This document shows positions 38,601-62,473 of a stretch of 64,000 bases of DNA, in pieces. The notes beneath the pieces were generated by a model. The model was given only the letters and a program-made list of their open reading frames with translations, made no database searches and was not told the DNA's origin. This DNA is from Acutalibacteraceae bacterium (GTDB lineage Bacteria > Bacillota > Clostridia > Oscillospirales > Acutalibacteraceae). Location: positions 5,940 through 69,939 of the forward strand of contig JAZPYN010000009.1 of assembly GCA_045544155.1 (NCBI GenBank), written 5' to 3'. The number at the start of each line of letters is the position of its first letter. The stretch's first letter is position 1. The position numbers and the translations under genes were made by a program.

Positions 38601-38627
38601 TCAGTATTATAATACGTAAAAAATCAT

Positions 38628-38666: not shown

Positions 38667-38800
38667 GTGGTTTTTTCTGCGAATATCAAAAAAATTGAAT
38701 ATTAATACTCAGTTTGCAATCTGTCAACAGAATTTACATTAATTTTACGGTTGTATTTTTTTTAATTGTGTGATAGTATTAATACTGTATAAGTAAAAAT

Positions 38801-40165
38801 ATGCTCTTTTTTACCGAAAAAGGTGAGATTTTGAAAAAAAACGAAATTTCAGTTGAGAGAAAAAAAGAAAAGAAAAACAAAAAAACAGTTATAGGTATAG
38901 CTGTGGCACTTGTAGTCATTGCAGGCATAGCTTTAGGGTTGATATTGCCGGTTGTTATCAGCTATTACAATAACGCTTACGAAAAGGCTGAAATTGTCGA
39001 GCGCACCGATGAATATGTGCGCCCCGAAATGGATGAGCAACCTTCGGGTTGGGAGGATGTTACTCTCAGTGAGGATGAGCTCGGCGACGATATAACTATT
39101 GAACCGGAAACTTTGCCTAACAGCGTTAATCAGAGCGGAACCGGTAATAACTACAACAGCTCCAATTCGTTCGGAAACTCAGCGAATGCTGTCAGTGTTT
39201 ACGGCAAAACACCGATATACAAGGTGGAGAAAAAGAACCCCGATATCGAAAACATACTTGTTCTCGGTACGGATTCAAGAGATGTTACGCGTGAACGAGG
39301 AAGAAGCGATGCTATTATCATTTTTTCATATAATAAAAAAACTGATGAAGTAAAAATGATATCGGTTCTTCGTGACTCTCTTGTACCTATCGAGGGCCAC
39401 GGATGGAACAGGATAAATGCCGCGTATTCCTTTGACGGCGTAGGTCTTGCAGTCAATACAGTTAATCAGATATTTGACCTTGATATACAGCGGTTTGTGG
39501 TAGTTGATTTCAACGGTGTTAAGGATTTTATTAACAAGGTAGGCGGCGTTGATATAAAACTTACAAAGGCGGAGGCTGAATATTTTAATCGAACAGGTAC
39601 GCTCGGCAAGCAGGTTGAGGAAGGAGTATGTCATCTCAGCGGTGCGCCGGCACTGACATATATGCGTACGCGTAAGGTTGACAGCGATTTTGGCAGGACA
39701 AACCGACAGCAGAAGCTTATACAGGCTTTGGCTAACAAGATACTCAATGAAAAGACATTGCCCGAAATATACGGTCTGACAGATTTTGCATTTAAGCTTA
39801 TTAAAACGAATATCACTCTTCCCGAGCTGACCGGTGTAATATCGGCAATAGCTAAGACAGATAACGCTGACAGCGGCGAGTATGAGCAGTTAACCGAAGA
39901 AAGCACGTCGCTGCAGGAGCATACACAGGTTGAGCAGAATACGATGCGGGAAGATGTTACAGCTTTGGAAGAAGAGATTTCCGCCATAACGGATGAAGCT
40001 GAGGTTGAAAGCACAGCTGCTCAAGCGGGCAAGGAGCTGTATATGCAGGCACAGCACGTACCGTATGACGGTGCTTATTCATATAAAAGATATAACGGGA
40101 TGGCTATAATATCGTTTGATATTGATGATGCCGCACGTCGTATAAACAGATTTATTTACGGTTAA
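38801..40165 (+). CDS. LytR-CpsA-Psr (LCP) family glycopolymer transferase
   Basis: 454-aa ORF with an N-terminal TM segment and LCP core motifs ILVLGTDSRD and GRSDAIIIFS. An alternative TTG start lies at 38831. Acidic C-terminal extension. Confidence 0.85.
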   Translation: MLFFTEKGEILKKNEISVERKKEKKNKKTVIGIAVALVVIAGIALGLILPVVISYYNNAYEKAEIVERTDEYVRPEMDEQPSGWEDVTLSEDELGDDITIEPETLPNSVNQSGTGNNYNSSNSFGNSANAVSVYGKTPIYKVEKKNPDIENILVLGTDSRDVTRERGRSDAIIIFSYNKKTDEVKMISVLRDSLVPIEGHGWNRINAAYSFDGVGLAVNTVNQIFDLDIQRFVVVDFNGVKDFINKVGGVDIKLTKAEAEYFNRTGTLGKQVEEGVCHLSGAPALTYMRTRKVDSDFGRTNRQQKLIQALANKILNEKTLPEIYGLTDFAFKLIKTNITLPELTGVISAIAKTDNADSGEYEQLTEESTSLQEHTQVEQNTMREDVTALEEEISAITDEAEVESTAAQAGKELYMQAQHVPYDGAYSYKRYNGMAIISFDIDDAARRINRFIYG

Positions 40166-40182
40166 CTTTGGAGGCGAGCTCC

Positions 40183-40905
40183 GTGCTTGATATTCATTGC
40201 CATATTTTGCCCGGCGTTGATGACGGCTCGGGTGCTCTCAGCGATTCTCTTGAAATGGCACGCATTGCAGCGGCTTCGGGAATAAGCAGTATTGTTGCAA
40301 CACCTCACTGCAATATACCGGGTCTTTGTAAAAACTACCGCAGTGAAAAATTAATATCAAAGTTCAATGAGCTGCATGATGCACTGGAACGTAATTTGAT
40401 TCCTGTTGATTTGTATTACGGTCAGGAAGTTTTCTTTACGGATGACTTTGAAAAACATTTTGAGCACGGAGATTTTTTAACGCTCAACGGCTCGAAATAT
40501 ATGCTGGTAGAGCTTGATTTTGAGATAAGTGAAGAAGAGGCGATAAAAAGCATAAAGCGCGTTGCTTCAACAGGTGTCGTGCCTGTTGCGGCACACCCTG
40601 AACGGTACGGCTTTATTGTTGAGCAGCCCGACCGTGCAGTGCAGCTCTGCCGCGCAGGTGCCTTGCTCCAGCTCAACCGAAGCAGTATAGTAGGTGAGTT
40701 CGGTCAACGCATATATTCAGCGGCAAAATACATATTGGATAACGGGCTTGCTGATGCGGTTGCAAGCGATGCACACAGCCAATACAGCAGAATACCTGAT
40801 TTTTCCGATGTGCACGAGGCGATATGCGAGAATTGGTCTTATGATTACGCAGATATTCTTCTAAAAATAAATCCGACAAAAATAATTAAAAATGAAACGG
40901 TCTGA
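40183..40905 (+). CDS. CpsB/YwqE-type (PHP family) protein-tyrosine phosphatase
   Basis: I prefer the GTG at 40183, 8 nt after GGAGG; the track opens at a TTG at 40168. The N-terminus is VLDIHCHILPGVDDGS. Confidence 0.85.
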   Translation: MLDIHCHILPGVDDGSGALSDSLEMARIAAASGISSIVATPHCNIPGLCKNYRSEKLISKFNELHDALERNLIPVDLYYGQEVFFTDDFEKHFEHGDFLTLNGSKYMLVELDFEISEEEAIKSIKRVASTGVVPVAAHPERYGFIVEQPDRAVQLCRAGALLQLNRSSIVGEFGQRIYSAAKYILDNGLADAVASDAHSQYSRIPDFSDVHEAICENWSYDYADILLKINPTKIIKNETV

Positions 40906-40937
40906 AGACTGTTGCTTCAAAGAAAGGCGAAAATCGT

Positions 40938-41756: not shown

Positions 41757-41799
41757 TAATGATTATTTTGTTTCGCCTTAGTGCGAGAGGTGATGAGAT

Positions 41800-43308
41800 T
41801 TGAAGAGTAACAGATCGTGGTTTACGATAACTTTTGAATTGAACAGCCTGATAAGAGACCTGGTAAGAAATATATGGGCGATTCTGCTTGCAGGTCTGAT
41901 TGCGGCTATGGGAGTAAGCATTTTTGAAAAAAGTATATATACACCCAGCTATACAAGCAGCGCGGTGCTTGTAGTACGCTCTAAGGTGAGCAGCAGCGGT
42001 GCTTACAGTAACCTGTCGGCCTCGAGTGAAATGGCTACGATATTTACGAAGGTTTTTGATCAGGTATCGATGAAGAATCTTGCGGCTGAGAATCTTGGGC
42101 TTGATTCGTTTGACGGCGATATTACCGCAGAGGTAAACGGTTCGACAAACCTGCTGAATATATCCGTCAAGTCGGATGAGCCGGAGCTTGCATTTAAGCT
42201 GCTGACATCTGTGCTGGAGGTTTACCCGGAAATATCAGATGCGGTATTTACCAATGCGGTAATTGACGTTATTTCTTCACCTAAAATGCCGACTGCTCCG
42301 TCAAATTCCGTGCTTACGAGATACCGTAACCATATCGTATTGTTTGCAATGCTCTTTGAGGCTGGTCTCATAGTGCTGCTGTCGCTGCTTCGCGAAACGG
42401 TCAAGGAGGAAAAGGGATTTTCGGAAAAGATAGATTCGCACATTATTTCGACGATCTCGCACGAGCGTCCGCATCTCTCTCTTAAGGAGAGACTTCACCG
42501 AAAGAAAAGGTCACTGCTTATAAATGATGCATATTCAAGTCTGAGATTTACCGAGGATTACCAGAAGCTTGCAACCAAGCTTGAATATATGCATAAAAAT
42601 AAGGGACATAAGGTGTTTGTTGTTACAAGCGTTGCTGAGAATGAAGGTAAGTCTACGGTAGCCGCCAATACGTCATTGGCACTTGCCGGCAGAGGATACC
42701 GCGTTGCGCTTATAGACCTTGATGTCCATAAACCGTCAATGTATAAAATATTTGACTACGGTAAGGAAATGAAAAATGAGTTTTCGGACGTGCTTACAAA
42801 CCGTGTCACGCTTGACGATTTCAGCTTTGTACGTTACAGAAAGACTGATCTTATAATTGCTTTTAACAAAAAATCTCATACAAATAAAAACAGTGAATAT
42901 GACGCCACTGCACTGAAAAACTGCATTACCGCGCTTCGCGAAAAGGTTGACTTTGTAATTATAGATACTCCTCCGTCATCTGTTTCGGCAGACAGTGTTA
43001 TGGCATCGGCTTTTGTTGACAGAACGCTGCTTGTTGTAAGGACGGATTGCGTTGCGGTACGTGATATTAACGATGCGATACTCGCTGTATCCGACGCGGG
43101 CGGTAAGCTTGCAGGCTGTGTGCTCAACGATGTTTATAAGCCGTTTACACTTTTCGGACAGATAGGAATTGACGAAACCGGTTATCACGGCTACGCGGCA
43201 TATTACCGCGGTTACTCTAAATACGGCAGAGGCAATTTTGCCGTAGGAGATGCAGATGTGTTTACGGAAGAATCACTCGAAGATAAAACAGATAAAAAAC
43301 AGGGATAA
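41800..43308 (+). CDS. Fused Wzz-like chain-length domain and BY-kinase (protein-tyrosine kinase), paralogue 1
   Basis: TTG start behind GAGAGGTGA. Two TM segments bracket an extracytoplasmic domain. Walker A SVAENEGKST, Walker A' ALIDLDVHKP, Walker B VIIDTPP. C-terminal Tyr cluster GYHGYAAYYRGYSKYG. Confidence 0.8.
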   Translation: MKSNRSWFTITFELNSLIRDLVRNIWAILLAGLIAAMGVSIFEKSIYTPSYTSSAVLVVRSKVSSSGAYSNLSASSEMATIFTKVFDQVSMKNLAAENLGLDSFDGDITAEVNGSTNLLNISVKSDEPELAFKLLTSVLEVYPEISDAVFTNAVIDVISSPKMPTAPSNSVLTRYRNHIVLFAMLFEAGLIVLLSLLRETVKEEKGFSEKIDSHIISTISHERPHLSLKERLHRKKRSLLINDAYSSLRFTEDYQKLATKLEYMHKNKGHKVFVVTSVAENEGKSTVAANTSLALAGRGYRVALIDLDVHKPSMYKIFDYGKEMKNEFSDVLTNRVTLDDFSFVRYRKTDLIIAFNKKSHTNKNSEYDATALKNCITALREKVDFVIIDTPPSSVSADSVMASAFVDRTLLVVRTDCVAVRDINDAILAVSDAGGKLAGCVLNDVYKPFTLFGQIGIDETGYHGYAAYYRGYSKYGRGNFAVGDADVFTEESLEDKTDKKQG

Positions 43309-43317
43309 GGATACCGT

Positions 43318-44799
43318 ATGAAAAACAACAAAAACAACGATGTGAATAGCTCTAATTCACCCGTGGAAATAAGGGTGCTTATCAGTGATATTTGGCGCGG
43401 AGTAATCAAGTTCGGCTGGATTGCTCTGGCTCTTGCCGTGCTTTTCGGAGGTATACAGTTTTACAGGAGCTATGTGCGGTATAAACCTGAATACACCGTT
43501 TCAGCAACGTTTACGGTGCATACGGAAAACGCTGTGCTTTCGGGTGACAACGGCGTTTCTGCATATTCGTTCTACTATAATAAAAATACCGCTGACCAGC
43601 TTGCAAATGTTTTTCCGCACGTTGTCAATAACTCGTTGCTGAAAAATCAGGTGTGCAATGAGCTTGGTGTTAAGTCGATGCCTGCTGCGGTTACGGCAAA
43701 ATGTATTGCAGATACGAATATGGTAACTCTCACAGCCAAGGGTTCAGATCCCCAAATGACCTATGATGTTCTTATGAGTGTTATCAATAACTACTCTTCC
43801 GTTGCCGATTATATTATCGGCCGTACCAAGCTTGTTATGATAAATGAACCTGATATGCCTGACGGGCCTTCCAATACACTGGCGTGGCGTTCTGCTGTGC
43901 TAAGGGCAGCGTTGATAGGTCTCGTAATTGGTGTTGCATGGATAATGGTTTATGCAATACTTCGCAAGACGATACGTACTAAGGAAGATATACACACGAT
44001 ACTGAATCAGCACTGTGTAGGCATACTGCCGCAGGTCATTTTCAAAAAGTACCGTCGCCAGATTAACTCTGACATAATACTTACAAATCCCCTTATCGGA
44101 AACCATTTTCTTGAAGCCTTAAGACTTCTCAGAGGCTCTGTACAGCAGTGCCTTGATGAAAAGGACAGGGTTGTAATGATAACAAGTACTGCTCCGGGTG
44201 AGGGCAAGTCTGTTGTAACGTTTAATATTGCGGCATCTTTTGCTAAAAGCGGCAGCAAAGTGCTTGTGGTTGACTGTGACCTGCGCGACTCCGGAATCGA
44301 TACAATACTTTCCGGAGATGATTACGGAGTGAAGGTAACAGATGAAAAGAAAACATATACAGTAAGCAGTATTGAAGCGTTGGGCTTCGATATACTCAGT
44401 TTTAAAAACGGTGAGGATAATTTGCAGGAGATCATACGTACCTCACAGCTCAAGAATCTTTTTGAACAGATGAAGCAGGAATATGACCTTGTATTTGTTG
44501 ACACTCCGCCTTGCGGAATTATTTCGGATGCAACAATAATTGCCGGTGCTGCGGACACGCTGCTCTATGTTATAAGACAGGATGCTGTTTTGCAGACCAG
44601 CATCAGGGCAGGTATAAATTCCATGCTCGAAACAGAGATAAAATTTGCCGGCTGTGTTCTTAACGGTGCAACAGGTGGCTTTGGCGGCTACGGCAGCTAT
44701 AACGGGTATTCAGGCTATAACAAGTATTATCGCAGCAGTTATTCACGCAGATACGGTTACGGATACAGTAAAACCCAAAAAACAAAAGCAAACAAATAA
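43318..44799 (+). CDS. Fused Wzz-like chain-length domain and BY-kinase, paralogue 2
   Basis: 493-aa ORF with two TM segments. Walker A STAPGEGKS, Walker A' VLVVDCDLRDS, Walker B VFVDTPP. C-terminal Tyr cluster GGYGSYNGYSGYNKYYRSSYSRRYGYGYS. Confidence 0.8.
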   Translation: MKNNKNNDVNSSNSPVEIRVLISDIWRGVIKFGWIALALAVLFGGIQFYRSYVRYKPEYTVSATFTVHTENAVLSGDNGVSAYSFYYNKNTADQLANVFPHVVNNSLLKNQVCNELGVKSMPAAVTAKCIADTNMVTLTAKGSDPQMTYDVLMSVINNYSSVADYIIGRTKLVMINEPDMPDGPSNTLAWRSAVLRAALIGLVIGVAWIMVYAILRKTIRTKEDIHTILNQHCVGILPQVIFKKYRRQINSDIILTNPLIGNHFLEALRLLRGSVQQCLDEKDRVVMITSTAPGEGKSVVTFNIAASFAKSGSKVLVVDCDLRDSGIDTILSGDDYGVKVTDEKKTYTVSSIEALGFDILSFKNGEDNLQEIIRTSQLKNLFEQMKQEYDLVFVDTPPCGIISDATIIAGAADTLLYVIRQDAVLQTSIRAGINSMLETEIKFAGCVLNGATGGFGGYGSYNGYSGYNKYYRSSYSRRYGYGYSKTQKTKANK

Positions 44800-44834
44800 G
44801 CGGCTGTAATTCTTTTCGGGAGGTGAGTGAGCGA

Positions 44835-46571
44835 ATGAAAAAGCCCGGCGAGTATAATGAGCTGTTTCGCTCTCTCGGCTCTGAGTGGAAATGGCTTCTC
44901 GGATATATCTCACGTTATAAGCTTCATATTGCGGTTTATGTGATAATGGGCATTGTTGCTGCAGCGATGGGGCTGGGCGTGAGCGTTTCGTCAAAATATC
45001 TTATAGATGCGGTTCTTGACAAAAATGTACATACCATTGTGACCAGTGCGGCTGCTGCAGTTTTTCTGGGGCTGGCACAGATAGTCATAAACGCCGTAAT
45101 ATCAAGGGTTGCTGCAATGGCTGGCACCAAGATAAGCAGTGAAATACGTGAGAATATATACGAGCATATTGTGTTTTCGAAATGGGAGTCTGTAAGACGT
45201 TACCATTCGGGTGATCTGCTTAACAGAATTGAAGGCGATGCCGGTGCTGTGGCAAGCAGCATAGTTACTTTTATACCGGGTGTTTTTACCAAGCTTACTC
45301 AGTTTGTCGGCTGTCTTGCGCTTGTGCTTTATTATGATCCGACAATGGCGATCTTTGCGTTTTTGAGCACTCCTTTTCTTGCCCTTTCTTCACGTATTAC
45401 TGCCAAAATGACACGTAAATACAACAAAGAGAGTCGTGAAATGAACGGTAAGCTGATAAGCTTTTATTCTGAGTCTATACAAAACTTGCAGATGATAAAG
45501 GCTTTTGATATTACCTCACGATATGTAGAGCAGATACGCCGAAATCTTGCACTTTACAGAAAAATAAGGCTCGATCACGACAAATTCGCTACAATAATGA
45601 CGGCTTGTATGGCTGTAATAGGTCTTATAGTCTCGTATGCTTGCTACGGATGGGGTGTATGGAGGCTTTGGAACGGCATAATAAGCTTTGGTACGATGAC
45701 ACTGTTTTTGCAGATATCCGGCAAGCTGACAGCCTCATTTTCTTCGCTCGTTTCACTTGCACCGAGTGCAATCTCAATAGCCACTGCTGCCGGCAGAATT
45801 ATGGAGATCACACAGATGCCTCTTGAAAACGGCGGCGATGCGGATAAGGCGGCTCAAATGAGCGATTCCGTAAGAAAAAACGGGATTACAATAGAATGCG
45901 AAAATCTGACATATACTTATGATGACGGCACGGAACCCGTTGTGAAAGATGTTTCATTTATTGCCCGTGCAGGAGAAACAATAGCCTTCGTAGGTCCTTC
46001 GGGAGAAGGCAAAACGACGGTTCTACGGCTTGTTTTAGGCTTGCTTGAGCCGGATTCAGGCTCGATTATAATGCGTACGGATGACGGTGAGGCTATCAAG
46101 GCTTCAGAGAGCACGAGGCGGTTTTGTTCCTATGTACCGCAGGAGAATGCGGTGTTTTCGGGCTGTATTGCGGATAATCTGCGCATCGTCTGCCCTGAGG
46201 CAAGTGATGATGATTTGAAATGCGTTCTTGAAGCGGCAGATGCGTGGAGTTTTATTGAGAGACTGCCGCTCGGCATTTACACATCTGTTGATGAAAAAGG
46301 TGTTAATTTTTCAGAGGGACAGATTCAGCGTATATCAATTGCACGTGCTCTTTTGCGTGATGCAGCTGTTATTGTTATGGATGAGGCTACAAGTGCACTT
46401 GATGCCGCTACGGAGGAGAGGGTGCTTGCAAATATGATGAAGGCATATCCTAACCGCACACGAATTATAACAACGCACAGACCCAGTATGCTCAGGTATT
46501 GTACGCGTATTTACCGAATAAGCACAGACGGCACGCTGACTCAGGTGAGTGCTGAGGAAGCTGCAGGATAA
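44835..46571 (+). CDS. ABC exporter, fused permease/ATP-binding protein
   Basis: I prefer the ATG at 44835, 12 nt after GGGAGG; the track opens at a GTG at 44823. Six-TM N-terminal half. Walker A GPSGEGKTT, signature FSEGQIQR, Walker B VIVMDEATS. No C39 peptidase domain. Confidence 0.85.
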   Translation: MKKPGEYNELFRSLGSEWKWLLGYISRYKLHIAVYVIMGIVAAAMGLGVSVSSKYLIDAVLDKNVHTIVTSAAAAVFLGLAQIVINAVISRVAAMAGTKISSEIRENIYEHIVFSKWESVRRYHSGDLLNRIEGDAGAVASSIVTFIPGVFTKLTQFVGCLALVLYYDPTMAIFAFLSTPFLALSSRITAKMTRKYNKESREMNGKLISFYSESIQNLQMIKAFDITSRYVEQIRRNLALYRKIRLDHDKFATIMTACMAVIGLIVSYACYGWGVWRLWNGIISFGTMTLFLQISGKLTASFSSLVSLAPSAISIATAAGRIMEITQMPLENGGDADKAAQMSDSVRKNGITIECENLTYTYDDGTEPVVKDVSFIARAGETIAFVGPSGEGKTTVLRLVLGLLEPDSGSIIMRTDDGEAIKASESTRRFCSYVPQENAVFSGCIADNLRIVCPEASDDDLKCVLEAADAWSFIERLPLGIYTSVDEKGVNFSEGQIQRISIARALLRDAAVIVMDEATSALDAATEERVLANMMKAYPNRTRIITTHRPSMLRYCTRIYRISTDGTLTQVSAEEAAG

Positions 46572-46581
46572 TAGTTGTTTT

Positions 46582-46620
46582 AAGCAGGAGGTGTATATGG
46601 CCTTCTGCTTATTTTTTTTA
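46582..46620 (+). terminator. Strong intrinsic terminator after the ABC exporter
   Basis: AAGCAGGAGG (46582-46591) pairs with CCTTCTGCTT (46601-46610): 10 bp including one G-U pair. It is followed by ATTTTTTTT. Confidence 0.8.
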
Positions 46621-46651
46621 AAGTGAATTACTGTATATTTATATATATATA

Positions 46652-46680
46652 TTGCTTTATTTTTCTTGACGTGATATAAT
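46652..46680 (+). promoter_or_regulatory. Sigma-A-type promoter of the RiPP-like cassette
   Basis: TTGCTT (46652-46657), a 17-nt spacer ending in TG-A, then TATAAT (46675-46680). Confidence 0.6.
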
Positions 46681-46725
46681 CAATTTGGTTTATTATGATT
46701 TATGATAAAATGTGGTGTTGCAGTT

Positions 46726-46992
46726 ATGTTTAAGATCAAGGATGGCTTTATTGTACGGCGTATAGGTCCGCAGACGATGGCTGTACCTACGGGTAAAATG
46801 ACATCGGAGATACACGGTATGATAGCACTCAGCGAGAGTGCAGTCTGCTTGTGGTCGGCACTTGAAAAGGGCGCGGAAGCACATGAGCTTGCGAAATTGC
46901 TGACAGATCAATATGAAACGGATTACGACACTGCGCTTGCTGATGTCGAAAAATTTATTGAAGGCTTGCGTGAGCAGGGGGCTCTTGAATAA
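46726..46992 (+). CDS. PqqD-family protein (RiPP recognition element / peptide chaperone)
   Basis: 88-aa product from the ATG at 46726; the track opens at 46702. MFKIKDGFIVRRIG...ALSESAVCLWSAL...ELAKLL...YETDYDTALADVEKFIEGLREQGAL fits the PqqD family pattern by eye. Confidence 0.7.
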   Translation: MFKIKDGFIVRRIGPQTMAVPTGKMTSEIHGMIALSESAVCLWSALEKGAEAHELAKLLTDQYETDYDTALADVEKFIEGLREQGALE

Positions 46993-48044
46993 TGGAATGC
47001 GACAGCTTTAATTCAAAATATACGGATTTGCTGGGGAGCTGGGCTAAGGAAAACCGTGTGCCGCTTACAGTAAATTTTGAGCTGACTCCGTTTTGTAACT
47101 TCAGCTGTGTAATGTGCTATGTTCGGCTCGATAAAAAGTCGGCAGAAGTTCAGGGCAGAATGCTGACAGCCGATGAATGGCTCGATATTGCTGCACAGGC
47201 TAAGGCTATGGGCACACTCAACCTTGCACTTACGGGCGGTGAGCCGCTTACTCATCCCGATTTCTGGTATATATACAGCAGGCTCAACAAAATGGGCTTT
47301 CTTCTTTCAATACTGACAAACGGTTCACTTATAGATGAAGCTGTTATAGAAAAGTTTCGTATGTACGGTATGCCGTACAGGGTGAAAATTACTCTTTACG
47401 GTGCGAGCGACGAAACATATCTGCGCACCTGCGGCTCACACGACGGCTTTACAAGGATTTCAAAAGCGATAGATCTTCTCAAAGCAGAGGGTGTGCCGCT
47501 TACGCTTACCTCTACTGTTGTACACGAAAACGCAGATGACCTGCAGGCGATGTACAGATTTGCGGCAGGAAAGGGTCTCAGACTTCAGCATACGGTCAGT
47601 GTGCTTAAATCCTCGCGCGGCTCTGTTAACTCGGTTGCGTCTTCTCGTTTTGCTTTGAGCGATTTCCCCGATGAGCTTTCACTCGAGCAGCTTGAGCGCA
47701 GTAAATTTCCTCCGCTTGCCTCTCCGTTTGCCTGGTGTGCGAGTAAGGATGTGTCATTCTGGATGACTTGGCACGGCCATATGCAGCTTTGTGCCTTTAT
47801 GTGTAAGCCGTATATCAAATATTCGGGCGACATTTCGCATGATTATGAACGTATGCTGTCCTTGCTCGACGACATAAAAAGTCCGTTGGAATGCAGCAAC
47901 TGCGAATGGGCGGATTTTTGTCAGCGGTGTCCGGGTATTCTCTGTGCAGAGAGCTCGGATCCGGAGAAAACAGAAAAAGGTCTTTGTGATATGGCAAAAA
48001 GGCTTTATGAAATATATTTAACTAAAAAAGGAGAAAAGGTATGA
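46992..48044 (+). CDS. Radical SAM / SPASM-domain peptide-modifying enzyme
   Basis: 350-aa ORF with CNFSCVMC (CX3CX2C), LTGGEPL, and a C-terminal Cys cluster (CAFMC...CSNCEWADFCQRCPGILC). The start overlaps the PqqD stop (TAATG). Confidence 0.8.
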   Translation: MECDSFNSKYTDLLGSWAKENRVPLTVNFELTPFCNFSCVMCYVRLDKKSAEVQGRMLTADEWLDIAAQAKAMGTLNLALTGGEPLTHPDFWYIYSRLNKMGFLLSILTNGSLIDEAVIEKFRMYGMPYRVKITLYGASDETYLRTCGSHDGFTRISKAIDLLKAEGVPLTLTSTVVHENADDLQAMYRFAAGKGLRLQHTVSVLKSSRGSVNSVASSRFALSDFPDELSLEQLERSKFPPLASPFAWCASKDVSFWMTWHGHMQLCAFMCKPYIKYSGDISHDYERMLSLLDDIKSPLECSNCEWADFCQRCPGILCAESSDPEKTEKGLCDMAKRLYEIYLTKKGEKV

Positions 48045-48307
48045 AGAAAAAGTATATTGCTCCCGAAAGCAGACTTTTTGCGATCAACCTGAGTGAAAGT
48101 ATTGCGGTTTCCGGCGGTACATCTGAAATTTCAGGCTCGGCCGTTATCCAGTTTACCGATGCTATGGACGGCTGCAGAACTTACTATTCCGGTATTCAGT
48201 CCGCTAAAGTTGAAACTACAGGTACCGGCTTTATTGATTATTATAACGAGCTTATGGGCTACGGCGCAGAGGCGTATTTTAACTGCTTCCGCTATAAGTT
48301 CGGATGA
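48041..48307 (+). CDS. 88-aa hypothetical peptide; candidate RiPP precursor/scaffold
   Basis: AAGGAG (48028-48033) lies 7 nt before the ATG, and ATGA overlaps occur at both ends. No TM segment or signal peptide. The sequence starts MKKKYIAPESRLFAINLSESIAVSGG, followed by a Gly/Tyr/Ser/Thr-rich region with 2 Cys. Confidence 0.6.
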   Translation: MKKKYIAPESRLFAINLSESIAVSGGTSEISGSAVIQFTDAMDGCRTYYSGIQSAKVETTGTGFIDYYNELMGYGAEAYFNCFRYKFG

Positions 48308-49074
48308 GGATCGGGCTGTGCGGTCTGCCGTTTGAGTGGCAGGCGGATAATACGGATTTTGTAAAAGATTTTGCCTCGGAAGATGAAGCAAGTCCGGTTA
48401 TGAAGCTAAGCTTTGCTGATGCTATGCCCGAGGGATACGGTATACAGTATGCCGATACGCCGACTTCACATCTTCTCAGACTGTCCGGCGGTGAGCTGCT
48501 GTGCGCCGCAGATGATTGGAGCGAGGCCACTGTTTATTTCGACAATGACAACAGTGAGTATGCCTTGCCGCTTGCAGCTGTGTGCTCAAGGCTTGCTTAT
48601 TTCGGCGGACTTCTTTTTCACGCTTCGTGTGTTGAGCTCGACGGTGAGGGTGTTGTGTTTGCAGGATTTTCGGGAGCAGGCAAAACAACTCAGGCAAGGC
48701 TGTGGAAAGAGTATCTCGGCGCAGAGATTATAAACGGAGACAAGGTGCTTGTGCGCTTGGCAGAAGGTGAAGTTTTGGCATACGGTCTTCCGTGGAAGGG
48801 CTCGTCTGAATACTGCCTGAACCGCAGGACAAGGTTAAAGGCGATAGTAATACCGATGCACTCTTCAGTAAATAAGATAACAAGGCTTGATACGCTCGGT
48901 ATAGTTGAGAAGCTTATGCCGCACGTTTTTCTCCCGCATTGGGACAAGCGTTGCCTTGAGCTTGCACTTTCTGCTTTTGACACACTGCAGACTGAGATAT
49001 CGGTATGGCTTCTTGAGTGCAGGCCCGATAAAGAGGCTGTGAAATTGACTTACGGTACGGTTTTTGACAAGTGA
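48304..49074 (+). CDS. HprK C-terminal-domain-like P-loop kinase
   Basis: 256-aa ORF. LFHASCVELDGEGVVFAGFSGAGKTT matches the HPr-kinase-like catalytic core pattern (HA..V...G.GVL..G.SG.GKS/T). Confidence 0.65.
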   Translation: MRIGLCGLPFEWQADNTDFVKDFASEDEASPVMKLSFADAMPEGYGIQYADTPTSHLLRLSGGELLCAADDWSEATVYFDNDNSEYALPLAAVCSRLAYFGGLLFHASCVELDGEGVVFAGFSGAGKTTQARLWKEYLGAEIINGDKVLVRLAEGEVLAYGLPWKGSSEYCLNRRTRLKAIVIPMHSSVNKITRLDTLGIVEKLMPHVFLPHWDKRCLELALSAFDTLQTEISVWLLECRPDKEAVKLTYGTVFDK

Positions 49075-49523
49075 TGGAAAAATTAGTTTGTTCTGCATCT
49101 GACTTTACGCAGATGCTTGAGGATACCTTAAACGACGGTGCTGTTGTACCGCTTTGTGTTACCGGTACAAGTATGCGTCCGTTTCTGCTTGAGGGCAGGG
49201 ATACAGTGTGGCTGAGCCGCTGCTGCAGCGAAGATATAAAGCGTGGCAGTATAGTGCTTTTCAGACGCAGTGACGGAACGCTCGTGCTTCACAGGATACG
49301 CCGTGTAAAGTCTGACGGTGAACTGACAGTTAACGGTGATGCTCAGAGATGGTGCGAAGCTGTTGAGGCATCAAGGGTTATTGCTGTTGTGCGTTATATT
49401 GAGCGTAACGGCAGCAAAATAAACTGTTCAGGCGGCGGCTTCAGATTTCGCAGTGAAATATGGCAGATTTCCAAGCCCTGCAGACCCTTTTTGCTCAAGG
49501 TTTGGAGAAAGCTGACAAAATGA
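49074..49523 (+). CDS. S24/S26-family (signal-peptidase-like) serine peptidase with no TM segment
   Basis: 149-aa product from the ATG at 49074 (a GTG lies at 49071). Motifs GTSMRP (Ser box), RGSIVLF, VLHRIRRV (His in the position of ER/archaeal/SipW-type enzymes) and NGD. No hydrophobic run of 18 aa or more. Confidence 0.6.
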   Translation: MEKLVCSASDFTQMLEDTLNDGAVVPLCVTGTSMRPFLLEGRDTVWLSRCCSEDIKRGSIVLFRRSDGTLVLHRIRRVKSDGELTVNGDAQRWCEAVEASRVIAVVRYIERNGSKINCSGGGFRFRSEIWQISKPCRPFLLKVWRKLTK

Positions 49524-50686
49524 ATTGGAGTAACGGTATGGATGCTCTGAAAACCGAGGTGCTGATATCCTTAATATCGGGCGCGGTGCACGGCTGTGAG
49601 CCTGTATTGCCTGACGGATGTGAGTTGAGTGAAGATTTACTTCTTGAGCTGTACAATGTTTCAAGAAACCATGATGCAGCTCATCTTGTCGGTGCGGCGC
49701 TTGGCTATGTTGATTGCGTAACTGTACCGAGCATTTACGGAGACAGTACTTTTTTTGCGATATACCGATATGAAAATATGAGCTTTACGCTAAAGAATGT
49801 TTCAGCTGCTCTTGAATCGGCAGGTATACCGTTTATACCTCTTAAGGGTGCTGTTATTTCAGAGCTCTATCCCGAGCCGTGGATGAGGACGAGCTGTGAT
49901 ATCGATATCCTTGTGCACGAACAGGATACGGAACGCGCAGTTGATGAACTGACAGAGAAGCTCGGATTCAGTTTAGGTAAAAAGGGAAGACACGATGTGG
50001 TGCTTACATCAGCAGAAGGAATTTCGCTTGAGCTTCACTTTACCTTGCTTGAGGATGATGATTTCCGCGATGCATCGCAGGTGCTGTCCGAAGTATGGAG
50101 CTACGCTTTGCCCGTTAAAGAAGGCAGTTCTGAGCACAGGCTCAGCAGTGAGATGCTTTGCTTTTACCATATCGTGCATATGGCACGGCATTTTATTTGC
50201 GGCGGCTGCGGTATACGTCCGTTTCTTGATTTGTATTTGATAACTGATAAAAATACCGAAAGGTTGCCCTACGGTCTGCTGAAAAGGGCAGGTCTTGTTA
50301 AATTCGGTGAGAGCGTGACGAAACTCAGTAATGTGTGGTTCGGGAACGGCGAGCACGATGAGGTAACGCTTGAAATGCAGGAATTTATCATTGACGGCGG
50401 TAAATTCGGCTCGGGTGAAAGTCGCCTTGCCGCATGGGAAAGCGTTGCGGGCGGCAAGAAAAAATATGTTGCTTCACGTATATTTCTTCCGTACGACAAG
50501 CTCAAATATCAGTATCCCGTATTGGAAAAACACCGTTTTTTGACCCCTGCCTGCGAAATTTGTCGTTTGTTTTCACTTGTGGCAGGAAAAAAGAAAAAAG
50601 TGAGAAAAAAGCAATTTGACAGAATAAATAAGCTGTCTGAAGGCTATGCCGAAAAAACAGCGGCATTGTTTGAAAAAATATTTTGA
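49520..50686 (+). CDS. PF14907-like (NTP_transf_5) nucleotidyltransferase-fold protein
   Basis: I prefer the ATG at 49520, which overlaps the peptidase stop (ATGA); the track opens at 49460. PLKGAVISELYPEPWMRTSCDIDILV fits the family motif by eye. Confidence 0.6.
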   Translation: MNWSNGMDALKTEVLISLISGAVHGCEPVLPDGCELSEDLLLELYNVSRNHDAAHLVGAALGYVDCVTVPSIYGDSTFFAIYRYENMSFTLKNVSAALESAGIPFIPLKGAVISELYPEPWMRTSCDIDILVHEQDTERAVDELTEKLGFSLGKKGRHDVVLTSAEGISLELHFTLLEDDDFRDASQVLSEVWSYALPVKEGSSEHRLSSEMLCFYHIVHMARHFICGGCGIRPFLDLYLITDKNTERLPYGLLKRAGLVKFGESVTKLSNVWFGNGEHDEVTLEMQEFIIDGGKFGSGESRLAAWESVAGGKKKYVASRIFLPYDKLKYQYPVLEKHRFLTPACEICRLFSLVAGKKKKVRKKQFDRINKLSEGYAEKTAALFEKIF

Positions 50687-50723
50687 TAAAATCAAACTGT
50701 TGTGTAGAAAGAGCGATAGATAT

Positions 50724-51377
50724 ATGGATAAAAAGGTTCAGACCGGTAATCAAAGCGGATATCGTGTCATCAAAAGATTTTTTGATATAGTGCTGTCGTT
50801 TATCGGCATAGTTATACTGCTTGTGCCTATGTTGTTAATTATGCTGATAGTAGTTATTGATGATCCGGGCAGCCCAATATTTTCGCAGAAGCGTGTAGGC
50901 AGAAACGGTGAGCTGTTTAATGTTTACAAGCTGAGAACCATGAAAAAGCACACGCCGAAATACCTTGCGACCAAGGATGTGGATGACCCGGATAAGTATA
51001 TCACAAGAACTGGCAGGCTTCTGCGTAAGCTTTCGATAGACGAGCTGCCTCAGCTTTTCAATATACTCAAGGGTGATATGAGTATTGTGGGCCCGAGACC
51101 GCTCATCCCCGATGAAAAAGAGATACATATTCTTCGTGAGCAATGCGGTGTATACAGCCTACGCCCCGGTCTGACGGGTCTTGCACAAATAAACGGCAGA
51201 GATCTGGTGTCTGCGCAGAAAAAAGTGGCTTGGGATGAAAAGTATCTGAATAATATCAGCTTTAAAACAGATATAAAGATTCTTTTGGCAACGATTCCAA
51301 AGGCTCTTGGCGGTAAGGATGTTTCAGAAGCCTTTGACAGCACCGAAAAAGATGGAGCAACGGAAGGGAATAACTAA
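50724..51377 (+). CDS. Small (PglC/WcaJ C-domain-like) polyprenyl-phosphate phosphoglycosyltransferase
   Basis: 217-aa product from the ATG at 50724; the track opens inside the previous gene. One N-terminal hydrophobic helix, PIFSQKRVG, and DELPQLFNILKGDMSIVGPRP. Confidence 0.85.
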   Translation: MDKKVQTGNQSGYRVIKRFFDIVLSFIGIVILLVPMLLIMLIVVIDDPGSPIFSQKRVGRNGELFNVYKLRTMKKHTPKYLATKDVDDPDKYITRTGRLLRKLSIDELPQLFNILKGDMSIVGPRPLIPDEKEIHILREQCGVYSLRPGLTGLAQINGRDLVSAQKKVAWDEKYLNNISFKTDIKILLATIPKALGGKDVSEAFDSTEKDGATEGNN

Positions 51378-51402
51378 TAAAAAAAGAAAGAGCGGTGTTA
51401 CT

Positions 51403-52800
51403 GTGAGCAAGAAAAAGAATAGCCTCAAGGACAAAAATTTTGCTTGCATTACTATTATTAGATTTTGCAAATTAATTCACATACTTCTTAATATCGGAAT
51501 ATTTGCTGTTTGTCTTGACTTTTACAATTCAAGGTATAACGATTATGGCGTAGGCGATATTAGGTTTATGATATTTGTAGGTTTGTATACGTTAGTACTC
51601 TTGTTTTCTTTGAGAACATATAAAGCATATGATTTCGGTATGACAGATAACGGTATATTGATTTATTCGCAGGCACTTGCAGGATTAGTAACAAACATTG
51701 CATTTTATGTGGTGTTTGTTGTTGCAAACTCAAAAGTATTTAATCCTTTGCCGTTAGCAGGATTTTTCTTGATTCAGATTATTGCTGATTGTATTTGGAC
51801 CTGCATAGTAAACCAAATTTATTTCCGGCTTAATGCACCTAAAAAGTCAGTTGTTTTCTATCGTGCACAAGAGAATGTCAGCCATCTTGAAGAAGTTTAC
51901 AAGCGTGAGAAAAATTTTGAAATTACCGAAGTTGTAGAATGCACGGCGGATTGGGTTGAGCATATAAAAAACTGTGAGGTTGTTTTCTTGGTTGATCTGT
52001 CCAAAAGAGACCGCAATCAGATTTTTGAATATTGCATTAAAAATAACATTCAGTGCTATGCATCACCGCATATAGGTGACATTATTATGATGGGTGCAAC
52101 ACATCTTGATATGTTTAGTGTGCCTGTTTTTGAAATCTCAAGAGTAACATTAAATATTGAGTACCTGATTATCAAACGCATAGTAGATATTGTATTTTCT
52201 CTGTTTGGAATTGTTGTTCTCAGTCCTGTTATGGTTGTGACTGCGATTGCGATACGTATGTATGATAAGGGTCCGGCATTATATAAGCAGGTAAGACTTA
52301 CAAAAGATGGTAAGGAATTTAAAATACTTAAATTCCGAAGTATGCGTGTGAACGCGGAGAGTGACGGTGTTGCAAGACTTGCAACAAGCCACGATGATCG
52401 CATAACACCTATAGGTAAAATCATCCGTGCTTGTAGAATTGATGAGCTTCCTCAGCTTTTCAATATACTGAAAGGTGATATGTCGATTGTCGGTCCGCGT
52501 CCAGAGAGGCCTGAGATTGCAAAGCAATATCTTGAGGAACTTCCTGCATTTGATCTTCGTTTGCAGGTACAGGCAGGTCTTACGGGACTTGCACAGGTTT
52601 ACGGAAAATACAATACCGAACCGCTGGACAAGCTTCAAATGGACTTGATGTATATAAATAATATGTCAATACTCCAGGATTTTAAGCTTATAATGGCTAC
52701 TATAAAGGTTCTCTTTATGAAGGAAAGCACCCACGGAACCGCCGAAGGTCAGACTACGGCACTCGTAAAAAAAAATGAGAAGGATTTTGAAAACAAATGA
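51403..52800 (+). CDS. Large (WbaP/EpsB-like) polyprenyl glycosylphosphotransferase
   Basis: Multi-TM N-terminus, central nucleotide-binding-like domain and C-terminal DELPQLFNILKGDMSIVGPRPERP. The start is uncertain: GTG at 51403 is chosen, with an alternative ATG at 51352. Confidence 0.8.
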   Translation: MSKKKNSLKDKNFACITIIRFCKLIHILLNIGIFAVCLDFYNSRYNDYGVGDIRFMIFVGLYTLVLLFSLRTYKAYDFGMTDNGILIYSQALAGLVTNIAFYVVFVVANSKVFNPLPLAGFFLIQIIADCIWTCIVNQIYFRLNAPKKSVVFYRAQENVSHLEEVYKREKNFEITEVVECTADWVEHIKNCEVVFLVDLSKRDRNQIFEYCIKNNIQCYASPHIGDIIMMGATHLDMFSVPVFEISRVTLNIEYLIIKRIVDIVFSLFGIVVLSPVMVVTAIAIRMYDKGPALYKQVRLTKDGKEFKILKFRSMRVNAESDGVARLATSHDDRITPIGKIIRACRIDELPQLFNILKGDMSIVGPRPERPEIAKQYLEELPAFDLRLQVQAGLTGLAQVYGKYNTEPLDKLQMDLMYINNMSILQDFKLIMATIKVLFMKESTHGTAEGQTTALVKKNEKDFENK

Positions 52801-62454: not shown

Positions 62455-62473
62455 CAATTTTATGAGGTTGAGT

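Follow-up and report, generated by a model that had tools for sequence, protein, structure and literature searches.

Gene content of the locus

The window analysed in this study is the whole stretch of 64,000 nt from an Acutalibacteraceae bacterium (GCA_045544155.1, contig JAZPYN010000009.1, positions 5,940-69,939). The genes and features on which the argument rests are the following.

38801..40165, + strand: cpsA-like gene of the LytR-CpsA-Psr family, at the start of the capsule/EPS locus (PF03816, 1.8e-36)
40168..40905, + strand: CpsB/CapC-type phosphotyrosine phosphatase (PF19567, 3.7e-60)
41800..43308, + strand: Wzz and BY-kinase fusion, paralogue 1 (Wzz, ParA and AAA_31 matches; kept upstream in related loci)
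43318..44799, + strand: Wzz and BY-kinase fusion, paralogue 2, Tyr cluster at the C-terminus (TIGR01007 eps_fam, 1.8e-29; upstream in 72/73 loci)
44823..46571, + strand: ABC exporter, membrane domain and ATPase (ABC_membrane 6e-35, ABC_tran 1e-25; in 71/73 loci)
46581..46621, + strand: terminator-like hairpin between the ABC and PqqD genes (12-bp stem, then a T8 run)
46702..46992, + strand: PqqD-family RiPP recognition element (PF05402, 1.8e-12; in 77/77 loci)
46992..48044, + strand: radical SAM peptide maturase with a Cys-rich, SPASM-like C-terminus (PF04055, 2.3e-27; in 77/77 loci)
48041..48307, + strand: 88-aa precursor peptide; leader 48041-48112 (MKKKYIAPESRLFAINLSESIAVS), core 48113-48304
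48304..49074, + strand: P-loop enzyme with the HprK/PEPCK fold, ScmC family (PF27840), 256 aa; candidate peptide kinase using ATP
48664..48690, + strand: Walker A / P-loop GFSGAGKTT (residues 121-129)
49071..49523, + strand: soluble S26B (SipW/Sec11)-like peptidase, candidate leader peptidase (150 aa; TIGR02228 3.8e-8, PF00717 2e-3)
49520..50686, + strand: PF14907 (NTP_transf_5) nucleotidyltransferase-fold enzyme, cassette accessory (longest ORF from 49460, 408 aa)
49889..49912, + strand: SCDIDILV, DxD metal-binding motif of the nucleotidyltransferase (D146 and D148 in the 408-aa numbering, both invariant)
50724..51377, + strand: small phosphoglycosyltransferase (Bac_transf; PF02397, 8e-58; longest ORF from 50646)
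51307..52800, + strand: large polyprenyl-phosphate phosphoglycosyltransferase (PF02397, 3.7e-64; TIGR03025 316 bits, above cut-off)

The ORFs and family profiles bear out the gene order given in the earlier note, in which the P-loop gene and the PF14907 gene bracket a small peptidase gene and are followed by two phosphoglycosyltransferase (PGT) genes. The first PGT gene was said to start 37 nt downstream, which matches the ATG at 50724, but its longest ORF begins at 50646 and overlaps the PF14907 gene. The proposal that the kinase-like and PF14907 genes form a functional pair was not sustained, as the invariant core consists of PqqD, the radical SAM enzyme, the peptide and the ScmC-like enzyme, and in 15/73 loci no PF14907 gene lies next to the kinase-like gene.

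Both genes belong to a larger unit that reaches upstream to at least 46702. Overlaps of 1-4 nt in the ORF list (at 46992, 48041-48044, 48304-48307, 49071-49074 and 49520-49523) join the genes for PqqD, the radical SAM enzyme, the 88-aa precursor, the ScmC-like enzyme, the peptidase and the PF14907 protein, and these six genes are a RiPP-type operon. The ABC exporter gene lies directly upstream, and the unit probably reaches up to 44823, with the exporter included. Homologues suggest that PqqD starts near 46726, and the PF14907 gene most likely starts at the ATG at 49520, which overlaps the peptidase stop as ATGA. The hairpin ahead of PqqD is the strongest + strand terminator-like site within 38000-53000; a hairpin with a T-run was found in 32 of 52 related loci, the sequences being unrelated. 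The short gap that separates the PF14907 and PGT genes showed no terminator-like site, in contrast to the strong one ahead of PqqD, and the cassette and the glycan genes therefore probably share a transcript.

The ScmC-like enzyme and its partners

The 256-aa ORF at 48304-49074 contains VVFAGFSGAGKTTQARLW and carries a precomputed PF27840 (ScmC) domain. Its curated matches are weak (TIGR04355 HprK_rel_B 3e-7, ScmC 4.5e-5, HprK_rel_A 5e-3), every curated kinase cut-off is missed (29.9 vs 200 bits for TIGR04355 and 22.9 vs 125 bits for TIGR04249), and the PF07475 profile gave no match at E<=0.01. The AF2 model (pLDDT 91.4) has PEPCK and HPr kinase/phosphorylase as its top folds, with Foldseek E values of 3e-7 to 1e-4. 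A loss of catalytic residues would have spoken against the kinase proposed in the earlier note; instead, His106, the P-loop and Asp146, which the family profile aligns with HprK/P, are invariant in 27 homologues. Within the P-loop this applies to G121, S123, G124, G126, K127, T128 and T129, which align with GDSGxGKS of HprK/P. The PF14907 protein is likewise not degenerate, since its KG, DxD and ELH motifs show no variation even where PF14907 proteins share only 20% identity, and it matches its profile with 126.6 bits (cut-off 31.2, E 1.6e-36). Judged by these residues, both enzymes look catalytically competent. The setting drawn from the lasso peptide kinases does not carry over: the protein belongs to the ScmC family, the lasso cyclase and B2 protease are missing, and the precursor has no C-terminal Ser.

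In a sister cassette the ScmC-like domain is fused to PqqD, a fusion family of 1296 detected proteins, and because of this fusion the evidence points to the peptide as the substrate of the ScmC-like enzyme; a fusion to a radical SAM enzyme in another protein (P0370) also fits a peptide-directed role. By analogy with HprK/P and the lasso kinases, the reaction would most likely be O-phosphorylation of the peptide. However, apart from a 2-kb contig (L096) with too little flanking sequence, each context seen has a radical SAM enzyme alongside the ScmC protein, and in P0370 the two are fused. This constant association counts against reading the ScmC protein as a tailoring kinase; it may therefore be an obligate partner of the maturase. 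Put as a full alternative, the ScmC-like protein would be no Ser/Thr kinase but an obligate, ATP-dependent partner of the radical SAM enzyme, and PF14907 would act on a target that is not a phosphopeptide. Such a partner could, for example, deliver or unfold the substrate, or activate a residue transiently before it is cross-linked. The PEPCK fold match, which is at least as good as that to HprK/P, fits this alternative, as do the lack of a conserved hydroxyl residue in the cores and the fact that ScmC is obligatory while PF14907 is optional. We nonetheless consider it unlikely, because His106, Asp146 and the P-loop correspond to the site of phosphotransfer in HprK/P, the characterised RiPP-associated HprK-like enzymes are all peptide kinases, and PF14907 travels with ScmC, radical SAM and ABC genes outside EPS loci, which fits sequential tailoring.

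The radical SAM maturase has CNFSCVMC and a C-terminal CxxC...CxxC...C conserved in 78 sequences. Its best solved relatives are SkfB (2e-10) and PqqE (7e-9), and the SPASM Pfam model did not match it. The ABC protein encoded at 44823..46571 has no C39 peptidase domain; its gene directly follows the ScmC::PqqD fusion in most sister cassettes, and it is the probable exporter of the modified peptide.

PF14907 adjoins the ScmC-like gene in 58/73 loci, and in 13/73 loci both it and the peptidase are missing. Since PF14907, ABC and ScmC-radical SAM genes are also found together outside EPS loci, PF14907 looks like a component of the peptide cassette and not a glycan enzyme.

The precursor peptide and the candidate leader peptidase

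The suggestion that the 88-aa ORF encodes a peptide substrate is in line with how it behaves. It is conserved in 76/77 loci, with a conserved 24-aa leader (KxYxxP...IAxS) and a core with invariant Cys45 and Cys82; conservation is 0.74 in the leader vs 0.54 in the core. Sister cassettes encode one to four short peptides (48-73 aa) with the same leader and variable cores containing 2-3 Cys. More distant ScmC cassettes also begin with MKKxYxxP peptides, their precursor-like ORFs being 76-84 aa long with the same KxYxxP leader. At the leader/core junction, position -3 is invariably Ala or Val and position -1 invariably Ser. Across all precursor types this junction Ser24 is the only conserved hydroxyl residue, and no obvious phospho-acceptor was found in the core, which counts against phosphorylation.

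RiPP precursors are usually shorter than 88 aa, and within Acutalibacteraceae the core shows a fair degree of conservation, so the product could instead be a small folded accessory protein while the enzymes act on another target. However, a Pfam search of the peptide found no family, and its AF2 model (pLDDT 45.5) gave no confident fold. The pattern of leader and core conservation, the Ala-x-Ser junction and a leader common to variable sister peptides and to distant cassettes indicate a substrate, which makes a folded protein highly improbable.

The peptidase is assigned through S24/S26 matches that are weak and below cut-off, but its G-x-SM-x-P, LHR and GD motifs are conserved in 54 sequences. 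No hydrophobic segment was found in it.

The cassette is embedded in capsule loci

The loci were compared using the best 80 of 343 related genome loci, mostly from Acutalibacteraceae. In these the PqqD-radical SAM-peptide-ScmC core is fixed between tyrosine-kinase genes and downstream glycan-synthesis genes, which usually start with an initiating PGT. The cassette thus has a constant place within the conserved 5' part of Wzy-type capsule/EPS loci, and because the arrangement recurs across these best 80 of 343 loci it is not due to chance. The earlier note had itself named co-occurrence with EPS genes as a test, and the outcome was strong, with a tyrosine kinase upstream in 72/73 loci and a PGT within 5 kb downstream in 51/70. 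The downstream glycan genes are variable, and even a relative 98% identical to the window has others in their place, yet the cassette stays. The co-occurrence extends to loci whose genes are ordered differently, including one from Blautia: all 7 of 7 sampled contexts of the fused type lie in capsule loci, between cpsA-D-like and glycan-synthesis genes, usually with a PGT first. In a rough NJ tree, non-EPS members fall between the two clades that are embedded in EPS loci. It should be noted that vertical inheritance accounts for part of the synteny conserved within a single family (Acutalibacteraceae).

Since the cassette is fixed in the capsule locus, the peptide would be produced along with the capsule, and its likely site of action is the cell surface, in association with the capsule. 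The position of the cassette in the capsule loci of many gut Clostridia hints at a link between a modified peptide and the sugar coat of the cell.

Two other readings of this position were weighed. The product could be an ordinary exported RiPP, a bacteriocin or signal, whose genes share no more than their place or their regulation with the capsule genes, the peptide being mechanistically unconnected to the polysaccharide. In its parts the cassette is a typical RiPP cluster that includes an exporter, and the wider ScmC family is present outside EPS loci as well. In one version of this reading the peptide is a pheromone, and the Agr-like two-component system that senses it controls EPS expression. 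The Blautia locus has an HATPase_c_5 kinase and a LytTR regulator divergently upstream, and an HATPase_c_5 kinase also lies beside another cassette. However, no immunity gene is evident, and no two-component system was found near the window locus. The fixed position between BY-kinase and glycan-synthesis genes, its recurrence in another cassette type that is not a sister and orders its genes differently, and the persistence of the cassette while glycan genes are exchanged also argue against mere co-location, which we regard as improbable.

The second reading is the peptide-linked or peptide-primed glycan put forward in the earlier note, in which a phospho-glycopeptide (phosphorylated by the ScmC kinase and then given a sugar by PF14907) primes, terminates or anchors the capsule polymer as a covalent conjugate. 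In its favour are the placement of the cassette just upstream of glycan-synthesis genes in two cassette types, the probable shared transcript, the location of PF14907 among glycosyltransferases in the Blautia locus, and the Ser-phosphate-hexose linkage made by PsmN (PMC8498205). However, the longer loci examined have ordinary Wzy/PGT machinery, and most of them retain a normal Und-P-based pathway, with Wzx where the sequence reaches far enough, for which a peptide primer is unneeded. Additionally, 15/73 loci keep the peptide but not PF14907, the latter is found with ABC and ScmC-radical SAM genes where no EPS genes are nearby, the dedicated ABC exporter suggests a free, exported peptide, and the conjugate would be without precedent. 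This reading is therefore very unlikely.

Proposed pathway

The explanation that we favour, and hold to be reasonably probable as a whole, is that the kinase-like and PF14907 genes belong to a RiPP-type operon of six translationally coupled genes, which is embedded in the capsule locus and works as follows. PqqD would bind the 24-residue leader, as family knowledge and the ScmC::PqqD fusions suggest. The radical SAM enzyme would then cross-link the core through the two invariant Cys, probably as thioethers. The ScmC-like enzyme would use ATP on the leader-bound peptide, most likely to phosphorylate a hydroxyl group, by analogy with HprK/P and the lasso kinases. Where present, PF14907 may add a sugar or nucleotide to the phosphate, a step proposed solely by analogy with PsmN. 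The peptidase is predicted from the -3/-1 rule to remove the leader after Ala-x-Ser24, and the product would be exported by the ABC transporter.

Comparison with known systems

The precedents given in the earlier note hold: a Ser of the precursor is phosphorylated by PadeK, and PsmN attaches a hexose to that phosphate in vivo (PMC8498205). The lasso pair (PadeK/ThcoK/PsmK with PsmN; paeninodin, pseudomycoidin) shares with the window an HprK-fold enzyme, a putative nucleotidyltransferase, a PqqD-type element, a precursor and an ABC exporter. PsmN and the PF14907 protein, both putative nucleotidyltransferases, are compared by role and not by Pfam family. However, a radical SAM enzyme replaces the lasso cyclase and B2 protease in the window, the precursor lacks the C-terminal Ser, and the kinase-like protein falls below PF07475 and belongs to the core instead of being optional, whereas PF14907 is optional. 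HprK/P and ATP-dependent PEP carboxykinase share the P-loop fold, and LH-x-S/G-x-V...G-x-GV-x-x-TG-x-SG-x-GK[ST]...I-x-x-D aligns with the His, Walker A and catalytic Asp of HprK/P. The window protein differs in its marginal sequence similarity (E 0.011), in its N-terminal domain, in a context without HPr or carbon-catabolite genes, and in that the central K/P loop signature is not recognised.

The thioether radical SAM RiPPs (sactipeptides, SkfB/AlbA; ranthipeptides, PapB) have in common with the window system a CxxxCxxC core, a Cys-rich C-terminal auxiliary-cluster region, a PqqD-type element, Cys-containing cores, several precursors in some loci and an ABC exporter. The KxYxxP leader may resemble ranthipeptide leaders too. 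However, the window system misses all equivalog cut-offs, and its recognition element stands alone or is joined to the ScmC-like enzyme, not to the maturase.

The genes around the cassette and their order are those of classical Gram-positive cpsA-E/epsA-E loci (LytR-CpsA-Psr, CpsB, CpsC/D BY-kinase, CpsE phosphoglycosyltransferase). The difference is a seven-gene peptide-maturation module between the cpsD-like and cpsE-like genes, of which no description was found in the searchable literature. The bioinformatically defined SynChlorMet (SCM)/PF27840 cassette shares the PF27840 domain and the PqqD-like and radical SAM maturase partners, and TIGR04249 ScmC, TIGR04250 ScmE and TIGR04251 ScmF are among the best curated matches. 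However, the window ScmC protein is far below the ScmC equivalog cut-off, and the window differs from SCM in its new precursor family, its S26B-like peptidase, its PF14907 protein and its fixed capsule/EPS position.

Organization of the cassette and the surrounding locus

A P-loop, HprK-C-like protein and a PF14907-like protein were described in the earlier note as bracketing a small peptidase, and the ORFs, motifs and family matches confirm this arrangement. These three genes are the last of six, from PqqD to PF14907, that are all joined by overlaps of 1-4 nt. Short gene overlaps are a signature of translationally coupled operons, and on this basis the six genes are predicted to form one such operon.

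Features of the region
41800-43308 and 43318-44799, + strand: tandem paralogous Wzz and BY-kinase fusions
44823-46571, + strand: ABC exporter without a peptidase domain, preceding the six-gene unit
46581-46621, + strand: hairpin with a 12-bp stem and a T8 run
46702-46992, + strand: PqqD-family RiPP recognition element (PF05402, 1.8e-12)
46992-48044, + strand: radical SAM enzyme (PF04055, 2.3e-27)
48041-48307, + strand: 88-aa ORF
48304-49074, + strand: ScmC-like P-loop protein, 256 aa (P-loop GFSGAGKTT)
49071-49523, + strand: peptidase-like ORF, 150 aa, with S26B boxes
49460-50686, + strand: PF14907/NTP_transf_5 ORF, 408 aa, containing SCDIDILV (126.6 bits)

For the PF14907 gene, ATG 49520 is the probable start, overlapping the peptidase stop codon. 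The spacing of 37 nt to the first phosphoglycosyltransferase (PGT) gene presumes a start at ATG 50724; the longest ORF opens at 50646.

Capsule loci are considered well understood, with regulators, an initiating transferase, glycosyltransferases, a flippase and a polymerase, and judging from their sequences the genes around the cassette belong to a classical Gram-positive capsule/EPS locus. Upstream are LytR-CpsA-Psr, a CpsB phosphatase, an Ig-like protein and the two Wzz and BY-kinase fusions, which are ~25% identical to each other and both conserved across related loci. Downstream are two PGTs, GT4 and GT2 enzymes, a UDP-ManNAc dehydrogenase and 2-epimerase, a Wzy-like protein and a CDP-glycerol glycerophosphotransferase (59713-60936, + strand; PF04464 6e-43), and the capsule polymer may contain glycerol phosphate, as teichoic acids do. 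A BspA-type LRR_5 protein is encoded ~3 kb upstream of the capsule locus (34611-35840, - strand); LRR_5 proteins also flank distant ScmC cassettes in two other loci (L091 and L093), which may be coincidence.

The hairpin between the ABC exporter gene and PqqD is the strongest + strand terminator-like site of the region, and a comparable hairpin and T-run of unrelated sequence was found in 32/52 related loci. An Rfam scan of 38000-53000 at E<=1 gave no match, so the gap between the ABC gene and PqqD holds no known riboswitch or leader RNA. The position of the hairpin suggests that the peptide-maturation and glycan genes may form a transcript separate from cpsA-D and the ABC gene. Co-transcription of the cassette with the glycan genes is probable, as a terminator-like site precedes PqqD but the short interval up to the PGT gene showed none. 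A scan for promoters gave no more sites than shuffled sequence would (27 vs 30.3 expected), and so no promoter is claimed; an extended -10-like string near 46670, TGATATAAT, was spotted by eye only.

Conservation across related loci

Scanning genomes gave 343 such loci, of which the best 80 were analyzed, almost all of them from ruminant or human gut MAGs of Acutalibacteraceae and other Oscillospirales. The nearest among these 80 is from a goat caecum MAG and is 98-99% identical to the window. The order BY-kinase, BY-kinase, ABC, PqqD, radical SAM, peptide, ScmC-like persisted in loci whose ScmC-like protein is as little as 39% identical. When loci with sufficient flank from the best 80 of 343 were tallied, PqqD and the radical SAM enzyme were present in 77/77, a BY-kinase was upstream in 72/73, an ABC exporter was upstream in 71/73 and a PGT was <=5 kb downstream in 51/70. 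The BY-kinase and PGT tallies show that the co-occurrence of the enzyme pair with EPS genes in other genomes is real. The ScmC-like gene was followed by both the peptidase and PF14907 in 51 of 73 loci, by PF14907 alone in seven, by the peptidase alone in two and by neither in 13. The ScmC-like enzyme is thus in the invariant core and PF14907 is accessory; the pair singled out in the earlier note is frequent, but it is not an obligatory unit.

The downstream glycan genes vary between loci. When the window was compared with the closest genome (L001), identity was 98% over 40033-51292 and 94% from 53982 on, whereas window positions 51293-53981, holding the large PGT and the GT4 gene, were swapped for a shorter unrelated segment (L001 12990-14242), with the recombination breakpoint directly after the small PGT. 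This variability and replacement place the cassette in the conserved, serotype-independent part of the capsule locus.

The precursor peptide and its predicted processing enzymes

The 88-aa ORF is conserved in 76/77 related loci with enough sequence and matched no Pfam family, and its AlphaFold2 model (pLDDT 45.5) was without a confident fold and too poor for a fold search. The first 24 residues, MKKxY[IV]xPES.L..I..E.IA.[x]S, show higher conservation than the remainder (majority fraction 0.74 vs 0.54), two Cys in the core (C45 and C82) are invariant, and the leader/core junction fits the signal-peptidase -3/-1 rule in every variant, with Ala or Val at -3 and Ser at -1. A Sec signal peptide was ruled out since E9, R11 and E19 fall in the would-be h-region. 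The leader is common to the variable 48-73-aa peptides of sister cassettes. A conserved leader, variable cores and several precursors per locus are typical RiPP features, and the 88-aa ORF can be assigned as a precursor peptide on its sequence features. The proposal that this peptide is the target of the kinase and nucleotidyltransferase gains from these features as far as the peptide is concerned; the two enzymes do not stand as a unit of their own and are part of an ScmC/radical SAM RiPP cassette.

The nearest curated families of the radical SAM enzyme are PqqE, StsB, ScmE, ScmF, AlbA and WgkB, but it missed all of the characterized equivalogs (SkfB, AlbA, StsB, PapB, PqqE; e.g. PqqE 75.7 vs 381, StsB 73.4 vs 625) and did not match the SPASM Pfam model. 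CNFSCVMC and C301, C304, C310, C313 and C318 are conserved, and the best solved relative is SkfB, a thioether-forming enzyme. The peptidase ORF keeps a Ser box (G-x-SM-x-P), a His box (LHR) and a GD box across 54 sequences, misses the S26B cut-off (TIGR02228, 33.4 vs 51.85) and has no hydrophobic segment in its 150 aa that could be a membrane anchor; it is a natural candidate for a cytoplasmic leader peptidase.

The PF14907 match of the 408-aa ORF is well above the gathering score (126.6 bits vs 31.2, E 1.6e-36). Conservation of PLKG, D146xD148 and LELH extends over 62 sequences, and the K, G, D, D, E and H residues are invariant even among members just 20% identical. The protein does not look degenerate, a possibility raised in the earlier note, as the KG, DxD and third carboxylate of the nucleotidyltransferase motifs are all conserved.

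The ScmC-like enzyme

The PF27840 (ScmC) domain is assigned to the window protein and all 120 listed homologues by precomputed hits, and the family is named 'ScmC' by a second source. Matches of the protein to NCBIfam were weak (HprK_rel_B 3e-7, ScmC 4.5e-5, HprK_rel_A 5e-3) and missed the curated cut-offs (TIGR04355 HprK_rel_B 29.9 vs 200 bits; TIGR04249 ScmC 22.9 vs 125 bits; TIGR04352 HprK_rel_A 16.0 vs 200 bits). PF07475 was not matched by the window protein in a Pfam search at E<=0.01, and the matches of its relatives were all sub-threshold. A single-sequence search against solved structures returned chance-level P-loop matches only (e.g. Sar1, thymidylate kinase); a family profile and a search by fold had to be used instead. 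When an AlphaFold2 model built on 27 homologues (pLDDT 91.4) was searched with Foldseek, the best matches were ATP-dependent PEP carboxykinases and HPr kinase/phosphorylases, at an overall E of 3e-7 to about 1e-4/2e-4 (PEPCK 1oen at 3e-7; HprK/P 1knx, 3tqf, 1ko7 and 2qmh at 3e-6 to 2e-4), which points to a PEPCK-like P-loop fold. In the family profile His106, the Walker A loop and Asp146 align with LHG...GDSGxGKS...ADD of HprK/P 1ko7 and 1jb1 (E 0.011), and H106, the G121-T129 region and D146 are invariant in the family, so the residues expected for kinase catalysis are conserved. The PF27840 domain, the structural matches and the profile alignment together indicate that "HprK-like" is correct for the predicted fold and active site, but by its family scores the protein lies outside the classical HprK family and every curated HprK-related family.

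Fusion proteins and the wider ScmC family

In several Acutalibacteraceae capsule loci the ABC gene and the main cassette are separated by another, divergent cassette (L015 5119-8244; also L005, L009, L012, L021, L022, L023 and L026). Its genes encode an S26-like peptidase, a radical SAM enzyme, a two-Cys peptide of 54-63 aa that has the same leader (the 54-aa form is MKKTYETPVAEKIEFRYNDQVVAS followed by GTSC...C...) and a 378-aa protein in which an ScmC-like domain is fused to PqqD. The fusion family has 1296 proteins at E<=1e-3, one of which is named by NCBI 'PqqD family peptide modification chaperone [uncultured Blautia sp.]'. All seven sampled contexts of this family are capsule/EPS loci with LytR-CpsA-Psr, Wzz/BY-kinase and sometimes CpsB. 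Each encodes a peptidase, together with one or two radical SAM enzymes and between one and four 48-73-aa peptides that have the common leader and variable cores with two or three Cys; in addition to the fusion protein, all but one encode an ABC exporter. PF14907 adjoins the ABC gene or is among the glycosyltransferases, and downstream there is usually a PGT, then glycosyltransferases and, where the sequence reaches, Wzy and/or Wzx. Of the evidence gathered here on the substrate of the ScmC-like enzyme, its fusion to a peptide-recognition element is the strongest, and it suggests that the enzyme acts on the leader-bearing peptide.

Other genes recur near these cassettes. A protein of ~390-410 aa without a Pfam or NCBIfam match always follows LytR-CpsA-Psr in the fused-type capsule loci (L085 2817-3986, L087 2560-3723, L088 2326-3498, L089 1645-2877, L090 2058-3227). 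An Agr-like histidine kinase (HATPase_c_5) and a LytTR regulator are divergently upstream of the Blautia-type locus (L081 4212-6266, L082 746-2800), and an HATPase_c_5 kinase also adjoins another ScmC cassette (L095 563-1780). These neighbors hint at peptide sensing. The window has no genes comparable to this pair, and a two-component or pheromone link was rejected for its locus as no such genes are found within ~9 kb upstream of cps (from 29751).

An exhaustive profile search found 10,587 ScmC clusters (50% identity) at E<=1e-3 and 965 at E<=1e-30. One distant member, P0370 (646 aa), is an ScmC-like domain fused to a radical SAM enzyme in a non-EPS context (L091/L092 710-12587). It is preceded by an ABC gene, PF14907, a 1231-aa GH16 protein and a 76-aa peptide (MKREYIRP...), and genes for a 318-aa protein and for an LRR_5 protein of BspA type follow. 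A similar arrangement is found in L093, where a 1689-aa protein with a CLIPPER domain is encoded upstream. The presence of PF14907 and ABC genes beside this fusion where there are no capsule genes suggests that PF14907 travels with the peptide cassette rather than with the polysaccharide genes. In sampled members with enough flank, a radical SAM enzyme and a 60-114-aa ORF adjoin the ScmC gene, often with PqqD and a ~160-aa protein, and capsule genes are absent; both small ORFs whose sequences were read from distant loci begin MKKxYxxP. Judging by the sampled gene neighborhoods, the ScmC/radical SAM partnership is general. A rough NJ tree without support values places the non-EPS members between two EPS-embedded clades, and if this placement is confirmed the capsule context would have been acquired or retained more than once.

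Proposed pathway and relation to the capsule

Gene content, coupling, conservation, catalytic-residue conservation, fusions and capsule embedding are observed here, and we infer every chemical step of a leader-guided RiPP pathway. PqqD would bind the leader and the radical SAM enzyme would cross-link the core through Cys, SkfB being its best solved relative. The peptide would then be acted on by the ScmC-like enzyme at the expense of ATP, and a kinase is what this enzyme most likely is. Alternatively, it might not be a tailoring kinase but an ATP-dependent partner that the radical SAM enzyme always requires; the cores have no conserved hydroxyl residue other than Ser24 at the junction. Following phosphorylation, PF14907, where present, would decorate the phosphate, as does PsmN in pseudomycoidin, where hexose is added to peptide phosphoserine, an activity known in vivo only (PMC8498205). 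Finally, the S26B-like peptidase would take off the leader and the product would leave via the ABC transporter.

A functional link between cassette and capsule is favored by the fixed position of the cassette, after the cpsD-like genes and before those for glycan synthesis, which usually start with a cpsE-like PGT, in two cassette types that differ in internal order, by its persistence while glycan genes are exchanged and by its probable co-transcription with them. The earlier note speculated that the peptide primes a glycan. Such a peptide-glycan conjugate is quite unlikely, as Und-P/Wzy machinery of the ordinary kind is kept in most longer loci examined, PF14907 can be dispensed with, the cassette has a dedicated exporter and it also exists without EPS genes. 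The broader idea that a cross-linked peptide, phosphorylated and mostly extended by PF14907, covalently joins the capsule as primer, cap or anchor, or controls the BY-kinase/PGT machinery, is similarly improbable; if true, capsule assembly in many gut Clostridia would include a ribosomal peptide as an integral component.

Capsules and exopolysaccharides shape the dealings of gut commensals with phages, the immune system and each other. The finding of a full peptide-maturation module, in at least two cassette types, at a fixed site in a conserved capsule region (343 loci found, best 80 analyzed) suggests that capsule production has a so far unrecognized peptide as its component, regulator or companion. 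It further opens a biological approach to the ScmC family, whose clusters at 50% identity number over 10,000 and which is without known function, in a system that offers a defined substrate, a peptide-pointing fusion and a scorable phenotype, the capsule.

Comparison with known systems

The capsule embedding of the cassette is robust, and no earlier description of it was found in the literature: searches for radical SAM/PqqD/ScmC cassettes in capsule loci and for PF27840 found none, and RiPP genome-mining papers made no mention of HPr-like kinases or polysaccharide. Lasso peptide precedents were found, and PadeK, PsmK and PsmN are likened to the window enzymes by description. The lasso kinase system (PadeK/PsmK type) has a lasso cyclase and a B2 protease, neither of which was found between 44823 and 50686. 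A weak asparagine-synthase-like ORF is 12 kb downstream, at the end of the glycan genes (493 aa, 62462-63943, + strand; TIGR01536 5e-6, eps_aminotran_1 4.5e-4), and is probably a sugar or uronate amidotransferase-like enzyme, not a lasso cyclase. Lasso kinases use a C-terminal Ser acceptor, whereas the window precursor lacks a C-terminal Ser and ends ...RYKFG, and C-termini are variable across 77 homologues. Both enzymes are intact, but the lasso analogy drawn in the earlier note is remote, with cyclase, B2 protease and C-terminal Ser all absent and the pair belonging to an ScmC/radical SAM cassette. Compared to HprK/P, the ScmC-like protein shares the predicted PEPCK-like fold and the His/Walker A/Asp pattern but misses the PF07475 model. 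The known kind to which this system is closest is the RiPP-type cassette with HprK-like and PF14907 tailoring enzymes, and its unusual feature here is its conserved genomic integration.
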